From Promethearchaeota archaeon Loki_b32 (GTDB taxonomy: Archaea > Asgardarchaeota > Lokiarchaeia > Sigyniarchaeales > SOKP01), in the NCBI GenBank assembly GCA_005223125.1, contig NJBH01000003.1:164303-228302 (forward strand): a DNA stretch of 64,000 nt, written 5' to 3'. The first letter of the stretch is position 1. Every line of letters begins with the position of its first letter. Made by a program: the position numbers and the translations under genes. The notes under the pieces are model-generated. The model searched no databases, was not told the origin of the DNA, and saw nothing but the letters and a program-made list of their open reading frames with translations. Shown piece after piece: positions 61,110-63,919 of this stretch.

Positions 61110-62108
61110 CTACCAATCATTATTTTCCCATTTTTTAAAAGAACCAAACCCATCAACATTCGAAATTACTTCTTTTGTATTCTTATTAAAAGTAATTAAG
61201 ATAAAGTACGAAGACTCATTCCGTTTAAAGGATTTGTGCTGTAAATGTTTTGAATAACTTTCAGCAAAAATTAAAAGGACATTAATTGAGTCTTCTTTTT
61301 CACGAATAAAAGGAATAATTGAACTCCATTTATGAAAGAACCTATATTCTTGGCTAATATTTTTAGCTAACTCAAAAAAGGTCATCTCTATTGAGTCATT
61401 CAAAACACTTTGATTATATAATTCCTGTTTCTTCGAGGAAAACACAAATGCTTTATTTAATTTAAACTCTATGCTATTATTTGCTGTACTCTTCTCATAT
61501 ATTAAATAGAAGAATGGAAAAAAGCCAGGAATATAATGTTGATTCTTAGGTAAGATCACTTGTATTATTATTCTTAAAAGAGCCCTTATCCCAAAATAGA
61601 ATATGTAAAAATACAGGTAAAATGAACCGAGACTCATAAATACATGATATGAAGGGTTTAAAAAAAAATATGATATTAAAACTAAAATATTAATGCCTGA
61701 AAAAGTAGCTAATAAAGGATTAACTGCTCTTTCAGCAATAAATCGAAATTCCTTTTTGGAAATTGGATAGAAAATTGGTATTCTTGAAGCAGCAAAGAAA
61801 TCCAATGAAACATGAATACTATACCCAATAAATCCTGCAAGCCAAACTTCTAGAAATAGCACATTTCTAAATATAGATATAATTAAACTAATGATTCCAG
61901 TAAAAATAAGTCCTACAATATAGGAGTGTGAACCGGCTTTATGGGAAAAAAAATACATCTTTCGTATTTTTTGGAGTGGTTCTAAGAATACATCGAAATC
62001 AGGTAAAAAGGTCATAATCCATAGAAAGATGATGGCTTCTGGGCTTAGAACAGTTAAGGTGAATAAACCAGCTAATACCCCCATAAACATATGTGTGAAA
62101 ATATCCAT
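61110..62108 (-). CDS. Membrane-bound metal-dependent hydrolase (YdjM-like)
   Basis: MDIFTH, LPDFD, H..SHS, HVSLD. Confidence 0.85.
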   Translation of the reverse strand: MDIFTHMFMGVLAGLFTLTVLSPEAIIFLWIMTFLPDFDVFLEPLQKIRKMYFFSHKAGSHSYIVGLIFTGIISLIISIFRNVLFLEVWLAGFIGYSIHVSLDFFAASRIPIFYPISKKEFRFIAERAVNPLLATFSGINILVLISYFFLNPSYHVFMSLGSFYLYFYIFYFGIRALLRIIIQVILPKNQHYIPGFFPFFYLIYEKSTANNSIEFKLNKAFVFSSKKQELYNQSVLNDSIEMTFFELAKNISQEYRFFHKWSSIIPFIREKEDSINVLLIFAESYSKHLQHKSFKRNESSYFILITFNKNTKEVISNVDGFGSFKKWENNDW

Positions 62109-62163: not shown

Positions 62164-62180
62164 ATAGGAAGCAATCCTAT
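62164..62180 (-). terminator. Short hairpin directly after the SECIS (copy A)
   Basis: ATAGGA-N5-TCCTAT; also present in copy B at ~62863-62879. Confidence 0.4.
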
Positions 62181-62222
62181 TGTCAACCTTCCACTAGTGT
62201 TTTTTGAAAGGTTTCATTCAAT
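62179..62222 (-). promoter_or_regulatory. Candidate eukaryote-like SECIS element (copy A)
   Basis: AUUG-AAU-GA-AACCUUUCA-AAAAACACUAG-UGGAAGGUU-GA-CAAU: K-turn core, 9-bp stem, A-rich loop, 3 nt after the stop codon. Confidence 0.85.
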
Positions 62223-62225
62223 TTA

Positions 62226-62711
62226 TTAATTAGTTCTTTTGGTTTTAAAATAATGGGCAAAAATTTCATTTTCTTTTCCGTATTTTTCTCTTATAAAATT
62301 TTTAAATTTCCCAATATCTAAACGATTTCTCACTTTTTCTCATCAACATCCAGAATCTGGTTGTAAATCTATTACACTATTAGGATATAATATAAAATTT
62401 ATATCATCTCGAAGTGGCATAAATTTTCTTAAATTACCATCTTCGTCAGCACCATAAGGCATTATTCCAACATCATCATAAATTATATTATGTTTTGGAT
62501 CCCAAAATAATTGTAAATAATTATAAATATAACCTTCAAATATTGGAAATATCGATTCACGTGGATTCTCAAATATATATTTATCTACAATTGCTAAGGC
62601 TTCAATAAAAGTAGCATCATCTTTTACTTGAACAGTATATTCTTTCCCTTTTTGTAGACCCATCGACGGTATACTAATTTTAAATGTAATTTTCTTAATT
62701 TTAATAATCAC
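62226..62711 (-). CDS. Candidate selenoprotein A: beta-grasp/ubiquitin-like domain-SGC-U-U-37 aa tail (161 aa)
   Basis: TGA at 62343-45 and 62340-42; frame stays open and conserved to TAA at 62226; SECIS follows. Confidence 0.8.
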
Positions 62712-62748
62712 CCCATTATGGTTAATACAACTATTAAAATCTAAATAA

Positions 62749-62811
62749 ATCTTTTTCAGAGTTTTCTAATGCGTATTTTCTGACATTTAGAAAAATTTCT
62801 TTTTCTATCAT
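62749..62811 (-). pseudogene. 21-codon remnant of the HD hydrolase N-terminus
   Basis: MIEKEIFLNVRKYALENSEKD vs MSEEEIIIIVRKYASKNSEKD at 61104. Confidence 0.8.
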
Positions 62812-62877
62812 AAGTTTGTACCAATTTTTAAATCCCATTTCTTAAAAGAATATATATAATATATAGGAAGCTTTCCT

Positions 62878-62921
62878 ATTGTCAGCTTTTCACTAGCGTT
62901 TTTTGAAAGGCTTCATTCAAT
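62878..62921 (-). promoter_or_regulatory. Candidate eukaryote-like SECIS element (copy B)
   Basis: AUUG-AAU-GA-AGCCUUUCA-AAAAACGCUAG-UGAAAAGCU-GA-CAAU; has G-C where copy A has A-U. Confidence 0.85.
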
Positions 62922-62924
62922 TTA

Positions 62925-63401
62925 TTAATTAGTTCTTTTGGTTTTAAAATAATGGGCAAAATTTTCATGGTCTTTTCCATAGGTTTTCATAATAACTCTT
63001 TTGAATGTGCCATAATCTAATCGATCTTTCATTACGTCAGCTCATCAATCAGCATGAACAACTATTGTTATTTCGCTGTTAGGGTATAAGTTAAAATTTA
63101 TATCTTCATGTAAAGGTATGAACTCTTTATTAGGTCCATAGGCATTTACTGCACAATCCTCATAAATAACATTTTCCTCAGCATCCCATATTAACTGAAG
63201 ATAACTATGAATTAAGCCCTTATATATAGGAAAAATGGTTCTATCAGGATTTTTGTATATATTTTTATCTAAAATGCTTAACGCGTCAATAATTGATCCA
63301 CTATCGTCTATATTTAAATTATATTCAAGCCCGTTTGATAATTTCTTCTCAGGATCTGGAGCAAAAATTGTTAGTTTAATTTTCTTAATTTTAATAATCA
63401 C
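62925..63401 (-). CDS. Candidate selenoprotein B: beta-grasp/ubiquitin-like domain-AD-U-U-38 aa tail (158 aa)
   Basis: TGA at 63045-47 and 63042-44; frame stays open to TAA at 62925; SECIS follows. Confidence 0.8.
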
Positions 63402-63434
63402 CTCTGATAAATAAAAAAATAATAATTATAAGCC

Positions 63435-63725
63435 CTAAATTAATCCTTTTGCTTTAAGAAGTTTTGGTAGTTCTTTCTTGAGATTTAATGAGGAAGAGAA
63501 TTTTTTCTCTCCATCTATTATTATACATTTGTTATGGAGATTAAGCTGCCTTGCTTCTTCTGAATTAAGATTCTTAGTGTCATACTCAATATGTTTTATA
63601 TAAGGTGTAAGCTCAATAAATACTCGGTTCATAAATTTATCCCATTCACACGCACACGCGTCTAAGGGAACATATATATCTACCTTTAATTTTTCTGAAG
63701 CTTTATCTTCACTAATCTTTATCAC
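63435..63725 (-). CDS. Small thioredoxin-like-fold protein with CxC motif
   Basis: VDIYVPLDACACEW after a beta strand; CIIIDG near the C-terminus. Confidence 0.6.
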   Translation of the reverse strand: MIKISEDKASEKLKVDIYVPLDACACEWDKFMNRVFIELTPYIKHIEYDTKNLNSEEARQLNLHNKCIIIDGEKKFSSSLNLKKELPKLLKAKGLI

Positions 63726-63739
63726 ACTTAAGAATTATT

Positions 63740-63919
63740 TTAATCTATATTATGAAGTCCTTTACATCTATCGGTACCACAATGAATACGTCTTGGTTCA
63801 TAATCTGGACTATCTTTATTACAATGTGATTCCGAGTTATTACAGCTTGAGTGAGACATATTTCCAATAGCTTCTCTTATTATCTTGGCAATTTGTTCAT
63901 CCATTTCTTCTTCATTCAT
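63740..63919 (-). CDS. 59-aa Cys/His-rich small protein (not in ORF track)
   Basis: MNEEEMDEQIAKIIREAIGNMSHSSCNNSESHCNKDSPDYEPRRIHCGTDRCKGLHNID; stop 14 nt before the next gene. Confidence 0.65.
   Translation of the reverse strand: MNEEEMDEQIAKIIREAIGNMSHSSCNNSESHCNKDSPDYEPRRIHCGTDRCKGLHNID

Follow-up and report, generated by a model that had tools for sequence, protein, structure and literature searches.

The window analysed here, a stretch of 64,000 nucleotides from contig NJBH01000003.1 of Promethearchaeota archaeon Loki_b32, carries two paralogous genes on its reverse strand, copies A and B, each of which contains two adjacent in-frame UGA codons (Table 1). Under translation table 11, copy A stops at 122 aa and copy B at 118 aa; with TGA read as selenocysteine (U), both run on to TAA-TAA. 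The copies align without gaps across the UGAs, with the TGT of A opposite the first TGA of B and an Ala of B opposite the second TGA of A. Translation and alignment thus bear out an earlier note on this DNA, which had described apparent TGA-TGA stops, a frame continuing to TAA-TAA and an ungapped A/B alignment. We refer to the homologs of the two copies as the A/B family. The same genome holds a second A+B pair on contig C32 and a truncated A copy on contig C28.

Table 1. Features of the A/B locus and the tRNA-Sec gene of the same genome; positions are those of the window unless a contig is named.
Feature	Coordinates	Strand	Details
YdjM-family membrane protein, downstream	61110..62108	-	near A/B gene in 7 of 20 loci
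Short second hairpin directly 3' of SECIS A	62164..62180	-	
lokiSECIS of copy A	62183..62217	-	AUGA, 9-bp stem, 11-nt A-rich loop ending AG, then GA; z -3.2
Copy A CDS, read through two UGAs	62226..62711	-	161 aa from annotated GTG; predicted beta-grasp domain, G-C-U-U motif, 37-aa helical tail
Copy A codons TGT-TGA-TGA	62340..62348	-	Cys122-Sec123-Sec124 if read through
Short second hairpin 3' of SECIS B	62863..62879	-	
lokiSECIS of copy B	62882..62916	-	8 of 9 stem pairs
Copy B CDS, read through two UGAs	62925..63401	-	158 aa from annotated GTG; motif D-U-U-A, 38-aa tail
Copy B codons TGA-TGA	63042..63047	-	family alignment columns 122-123; context GAT-TGA-TGA-GCT
CxC-motif protein, directly upstream	63435..63725	-	96 aa; no Pfam or NCBIfam family
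Cys/His-rich ORF, upstream	63740..63919	-	59 aa
tRNA-Sec	contig C57:28503-28655	-	two apparent insertions, D arm and T loop

The annotated GTG of both copies falls inside a GGTGAT Shine-Dalgarno-like motif (window 62697-62714 and 63387-63404), and the true start is probably an ATT 7 nt downstream of it, at 62699 in A and 63389 in B. Family-wide, an ATT or ATG placed 7 nt after the Shine-Dalgarno-like motif seems the likelier start. ATT stands at this position in 49 of 70 copies of family f1, some of which have an in-frame stop just 5' of it, a pattern that suggests AUU initiation. The 5' ends of A and B are about 90% identical and their middles about 60% (window 62600-62730 compared with 63290-63420), and on contig C28 (1-837) an A-type gene directly follows the CxC gene, where the window has B; together, these observations suggest gene conversion, recombination or strain mixture.

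Adjacent TGA codons are rare at the ends of genes in this genome. TGA-TGA ends only 5 of 2490 long ORFs, 14% of which end in TGA and 71% in TAA, and at least 31 open codons follow the stop in 12%. Within the A/B family, 52/52 homologs of one set keep both TGAs, as do all 79 of the extracted copies spanning the site, with identity falling to about 20%. Set against the rarity of the arrangement in the genome, this conservation argues that the TGA-TGA and the tail behind it are not due to chance. Homologs with TAA or TAG at these positions, or with the frame lost before the tail, had been named in advance as evidence against read-through; neither codon occurs at either UGA position in the 79 site-covering copies, and where homologs carry sense codons instead, the tail continues in the same frame.

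A SECIS-like hairpin begins 11 nt past the last sense codon in A and in B, and its shape is the one defined for lokiSECIS elements (Mariotti 2016, PMC4989117). Among 50 copies pre-filtered for at least 7 pairs, two-sided changes occur at 9/9 stem pairs, with 54 covarying cells compared with 12 in shuffled and at most 15 in slid controls. The exact shape was found in 54 of 79 copies, most of the others having a loop-length variant, a shared SECIS or a contig edge. In the C32 pair, the upstream copy is without its own SECIS and ends in TAA, as expected if the pair shares one element. For the window copies, shape and covarying pairs uphold the earlier claim that each gene has its own SECIS-like 3' hairpin. 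A scan of the whole genome with the published pattern returned 13 matches (0-5 in shuffles), of which 10 follow ORFs with an internal in-frame UGA; named from sequence, these comprise PrxL-, HdrA- and VhuD-like proteins, the A/B family and two unknown proteins. Rfam searches of the 3' UTRs gave nothing relevant. Within a few bases 3' of the SECIS core lies a short second hairpin, present in the A/B family and shared by most of the genome's other lokiSECIS. This hairpin, which is not known to have been described before, may belong to the element or act as a terminator.

The genome encodes SepSecS, EFSec, PSTK (a match at E 6e-40, below the curated cut-off) and two UGA-containing SelD proteins. 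Its tRNA-Sec gene, which has a UCA anticodon and introns, adjoins SepSecS on contig C57; the gene was missed by Rfam and ARAGORN and was located by BLAST with that of a relative. Of its two apparent insertions, the one in the T loop matches the tRNA-Sec intron described in PMC4989117, where no other intron is given. An Rfam tRNA-Sec match on contig C29 and relaxed ARAGORN calls on C68 and C64 proved not to be tRNA-Sec.

Of 160 other genomes in the class, which we infer to be Lokiarchaeia on the strength of SECIS type and tRNA-Sec arrangement, 137 contain the A/B family, one of these matches being a contig-end fragment. Among the full-length matches listed, each has at least two TGAs, and two complete genomes carry an A/B gene. 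Apart from the sense-codon homologs, public-database entries for the proteins are truncated at the first UGA. SepSecS is present in 132 of the 137 carriers, which are related genomes rather than independent samples, and the remaining five are fragmented MAGs; the co-occurrence with Sec machinery that the earlier note had proposed to check is thus observed. The family was found neither in 90 SepSecS-positive Asgard genomes outside the class nor in Asgard lineages without SepSecS. Two weak phylum-wide matches were rejected, one in genome G309 to a canonical Gly-Gly-ended ThiS-family protein that is not an A/B member, and one in G086 that is a chance match riddled with stops.

Three motifs occur at the UGA site: G-C-U-U, D-U-U-A/S and U-G-U-U. 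The first is present in all seven families (f1-f7) and is placed as ancestral on a midpoint-rooted tree of the sequences, while the other two each form one clade inside f1. The U-G-U-U subtype, with three Sec in four residues (L057-L062), often forms a tandem pair with a G-C-U-U paralog, and both genes then have a SECIS of their own. Two loci, L051 and L056, have a third in-frame TGA within the tail, where relatives encode Arg or Gly, and the frame stays conserved past it; this codon may represent a nonsense change, an error or tolerated read-through.

Sixteen homologs have sense codons at the site. Fifteen are Cys-only proteins, three of which NCBI assigns to Bathyarchaeia; the sixteenth, P0007, is nested among Loki f2 proteins, with C-V-S at the site, no SECIS and the tail in frame. 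The Cys-only form is sporadic in Bathyarchaeia (5/201), none of which has a TGA, and both hosts tested lack SepSecS. We tabulated the exchange of TGA and Cys codons at the three motif columns. Column 122 is Cys in the A type and in 15/16 sense homologs and Sec in the B type. At column 123, where the UGA-bearing copies have an invariant Sec, the sense homologs have I, V, S, G, K, N or T, and at column 124 T, S, D, H, E or G, with Cys in 0/16 at either. The classic Sec/Cys pairing that had been claimed for this motif therefore stands for column 122 and fails for columns 123 and 124. Since these two columns are never Cys in homologs, the usual Sec/Cys test fails for both, and the adjacent Sec pair appears to have been gained at non-Cys positions.

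The tail comprises about 35 residues, helical, with R130, F136, G145 and Y154 nearly invariant. Pooled over pairs that are not independent, pairwise dN/dS is 0.16-0.18 in the tail and 0.12-0.25 in the domain. No conserved RNA structure was found around the UGAs, and translational coupling through the ATG within TGATGA was rejected, its frame not being conserved (2-81 codons). A very improbable alternative is that only the first UGA, or neither, encodes Sec, and that the tail of about 35 aa is made as its own peptide from a GTG or ATG at column 127, behind a Shine-Dalgarno-like UGAU to which the UGAs give rise. In f1, this column is indeed ATG, GTG or TTG in 66 of 76 copies; it stands 8 nt after the UGAU in types A and C, with GTG making up 30 of 36 Val codons at the column in type A, compared with 14% elsewhere, and type C reading GGGTGAT, 8 nt, then ATG. 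Gene callers, moreover, list the tail by itself (P0087, P0092). However, TAA never replaces the second TGA, even though TGA-TAA would leave the UGAU intact, and the codons that separate the UGAs from the next possible start show synonymous variation. Only 3 of 19 copies from the distant families have a start-type codon at column 127, and their tail is still conserved; the tail is fused in the sense-codon homologs, and the gene contains no other in-frame UGA for the SECIS to serve. The start-type codon of f1 may reflect re-initiation upon UGA termination, at most a by-product, or merely a local sequence constraint. From the sequence comparisons, we consider it highly probable that both UGAs are decoded as Sec under the 3'-UTR lokiSECIS, in copy A as in copy B.

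An AlphaFold2 model was built from 64 sequences with U modelled as C. The model (pLDDT 89.8, pTM 0.87) arranges its elements across residues 5-118 as in a beta-grasp fold, is less certain at the motif loop and places three helices in the tail. Several structural matches are tied at middling scores: the transcobalamin beta domain comes first (Z 7.2, rmsd 3.0, 91 aligned, 10% identity), alongside CysO (Z 6.9, rmsd 3.5, 84 aligned), SAMP1 (Z 6.5, rmsd 3.2, 85 aligned), HVO_2177 (6.5) and MoaD-like proteins (5.6-6.0). Alignments to the sulfur carriers end at model residues 120-125. By hhalign, the family matches a canonical ThiS-family protein, a target picked via the genome search, at E 1.7e-6, with the terminal Gly-Gly on C122-U123. 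Foldseek returned only weak ubiquitin-like matches and none at E <= 0.001; Pfam, NCBIfam and PDB sequence searches gave no family for the A/B proteins, 0/64 members match Pfam ThiS/Urm1, and the ArsD profile had no match in the Pfam or NCBIfam scans.

Judged by the model and the profile alignment, the predicted A/B protein descends from the MoaD/SAMP fold. Model topology, Z scores of 5.6-6.9 and the hhalign match substantiate the earlier view of a beta-grasp domain resembling MoaD, SAMP and Urm1, as well as the proposal that the C-U or U-U pair sits at the Gly-Gly position. A/B proteins share with MoaD, ThiS, CysO, SAMP and Urm1 the fold, the profile similarity and the site of the motif; unlike them, they have an insert of about 14 residues and a helical extension of 31-53 aa, and neither their read-through nor their stopped forms have a terminal Gly-Gly, the stopped ones ending in GC, AD or SS/SA. 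Failing this defining feature, the A/B protein is not a MoaD/SAMP member, and the MoaD-like carrier role that the earlier note had suggested becomes unlikely.

The surroundings of the genes point towards a part in arsenic and mercury handling. On contig C28, in a stretch homologous to the window, acr3 and an ArsR-like gene precede the Cys/His-rich ORF, just upstream of which the window contig ends, and the C32 A+B pair directly follows acr3. Among 20 f1 loci selected as lying on long contigs, we found Acr3 in 16, ArsR in 16, a homolog of the CxC protein in 15, ferredoxin in 8 and a CpaM/HgcA-like fusion in 7, with ArsM, ArsC and ArsP in other A/B loci. The CxC protein may have a thioredoxin-like role. 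Hgc matches fall below curated cut-offs and are thus HgcAB-like, not HgcAB. In L082, L085-L089 and L092, a CpaM-like methyltransferase is fused to an HgcA-like corrinoid domain (cap motif NVWCAARG) within the ars cluster and is followed by a ferredoxin, which in L092 ends Cys-Cys-Cys. Linkage to ars genes is confined to f1 and f4. Members of f2, f3 and f5-f7 lie away from acr3, with varied neighbours that include aldehyde:ferredoxin oxidoreductase-like and CODH-like genes, and the Cys-only homologs are without ars context.

Two readings of the protein draw on its fold and these neighbours. In the first, which is improbable, an E1-independent MoaD descendant would carry or store selenium or sulfur, the motif bearing a per-selenide or persulfide destined for SelD or for the synthesis of W/Mo-pterin or Fe-S. 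The MoaD/SAMP-fold descent and the motif at the Gly-Gly position are in keeping with it, as are the aldehyde:ferredoxin oxidoreductase-like neighbours, named from sequence, in three distant loci and a NifU_N gene beside P0007. Yet the missing terminal Gly-Gly stands against it, no recurrent moaE, moeB or selD neighbour appears among the clusters found, and a carrier for SelD would be circular, since Sec itself depends on SelD. The second, to which we give only a very slim chance, is a cobalamin- or corrinoid-binding beta-grasp protein that aids an HgcA-like corrinoid protein, with Sec as axial or methyl-accepting ligand. It would account for the transcobalamin beta domain as top structural match and for the HgcA-like neighbours; that score, however, is tied with those of CysO and SAMP, the sequence affinity is to ThiS/MoaD, and a corrinoid gene is missing from most loci.

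We favour a role in binding metals and metalloids. As(III) and Hg(II) bind preferentially to soft chalcogen ligands that lie next to each other. The gene would encode one protein of about 155 aa, comprising a MoaD/SAMP-derived beta-grasp domain, C-U-U (A) or U-U (B) at the Gly-Gly site and a three-helix tail, in which the adjacent selenols would chelate soft trivalent metal(loid)s or organo-metal(loid)s, among them As(III), methyl-As(III), Sb(III) and Hg(II); in the A type, Cys122 might supply a third ligand. Such a protein could buffer the metal(loid) and hand it on to the Acr3 exporter or to ArsM/HgcA-like methyltransferases, much as ArsD does for ArsA, and the upstream CxC protein may hold the motif reduced. 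Its ancestor would be a single-Cys protein of the same fold, of a kind still found in Bathyarchaeia, to which Sec-Sec was added in Lokiarchaeia. ArsD itself has a vicinal Cys-Cys and a third Cys and delivers As(III) to ArsA. It resembles the A/B protein in size, in placement within ars operons and in the proposed way of working; it differs in its thioredoxin-like fold and its ArsA partner, A/B loci having Acr3 instead, and A/B proteins have no Pfam match.

The same selenoprotein might instead use the motif as a redox centre, cycling a vicinal diselenide or selenenylsulfide and passing electrons to ArsC, ArsM, the CxC protein or ferredoxin-linked enzymes, a reading that is unlikely on balance and still a serious contender. 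Mammalian thioredoxin reductase has a C-terminal Gly-Cys-Sec-Gly, and the A/B proteins share with it a G-C-U string and a vicinal redox pair, although in A/B the motif is internal, a second Sec follows and there is no flavoenzyme body. The CxC-protein and ferredoxin neighbours would suit electron transfer, a gene near-core in its class even where unlinked to ars genes would suit a general role, and most characterised selenoproteins are redox proteins (PMC13188914). Against this, the A/B protein has neither a thioredoxin fold nor a CxxU motif, and its Cys-only ancestors have one Cys, with no internal disulfide possible. The register of the motif also shifts among paralogs (CUU, DUU, UGUU), which would better fit a tolerant ligand site.

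What places the chelator above the redox shuttle is ligand chemistry, gene context and the occurrence of related motifs in organometal(loid) systems, where bacterial proteins carry CU or CC: HgcA (N-terminal CU), HgcB (terminal CC), SaoL, SaoC and MbdU (bioRxiv 10.1101/2022.07.06.499078; PMC13188914). These too have a vicinal chalcogen pair, are small and belong to As/Hg-related operons; they differ in having no detectable homology to the A/B family, in the use of CU or CC and not UU, and in their bacterial SECIS. Granted read-through, context and chemistry give the chelator role roughly an even chance or slightly less. With read-through included, the proposal that the Sec-Sec pair binds arsenic or mercury species, as a vicinal-diselenol chelator or chaperone, falls somewhat short of even. 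The fuller picture, which we put forward tentatively as a little less probable again, is of an uncatalogued, near-core Lokiarchaeial ubiquitin-fold selenoprotein in which Sec-Sec has replaced Gly-Gly and serves as an As/Hg trap or chaperone, the f1 tail perhaps being made separately when selenium is short.

The lokiSECIS selenoproteins known so far are SelD/SPS, HdrA, VhuD/FrhD, VhuU/FrhA and PrxL (Mariotti 2016, PMC4989117), to which AhpF-N-like and DsbA-like proteins have been added in Asgard archaea (Huang 2024, PMC11227280). The A/B genes resemble the lokiSECIS genes in SECIS shape, in the SECIS site just past the stop, in machinery and in that tandem genes may share one SECIS, as the C32 pair does here and hdrA-vhuD there. 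They stand apart in the beta-grasp fold, in the adjacent Sec-Sec and in having no Cys homolog at two of the three motif columns. The family is absent from the 7 Asgard families (PMC11227280), from 11 archaeal families and from the 119 prokaryotic families and subfamilies of 2026, none of which has a UU motif or is described as ubiquitin-like (PMC13188914), and a literature search, whose coverage mostly leaves out subscription papers, returned no description of it. These comparisons agree with the earlier claim of a new selenoprotein family with no beta-grasp counterpart among the known Loki ones. The non-Cys columns 123-124 may explain its omission from the surveys of PMC4989117 and PMC11227280, which were mainly based on known families or Cys homologs.

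Two further candidate selenoproteins, each with its own lokiSECIS, were noted elsewhere in the genome. The first, on contig C70 (14425-14667, plus strand; locus L124:126-368), has 81 aa, an N-terminal membrane-helix-like stretch and the motif G-G-U-A-C (UxC). Homologs ranging from weak to good are present in 13 of 24 genomes of the same genus; 11 of them contain one in-frame TGA, and the remaining two are short matches without TGA. The second, on contig C11 (35368-35676, plus strand; locus L123:169-477), has 103 aa, a membrane-helix-like stretch, an acidic linker and the motif C-F-U-H (CxU), and its in-frame TGA is kept in at least two relatives.

With the A/B family, which about 85% of Lokiarchaeia genomes contain, the archaeal list would grow beyond its present 11 selenoprotein families, and the case illustrates that searches requiring a known family or a Cys homolog overlook real selenoproteins. 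Back-to-back UGA recoding from one eukaryote-like SECIS offers a compact test of Sec insertion in Asgard archaea, in which, to our knowledge, SBP2 has not been found. If the arsenic role holds true, selenium supply would be tied to arsenic and mercury handling in sediments.
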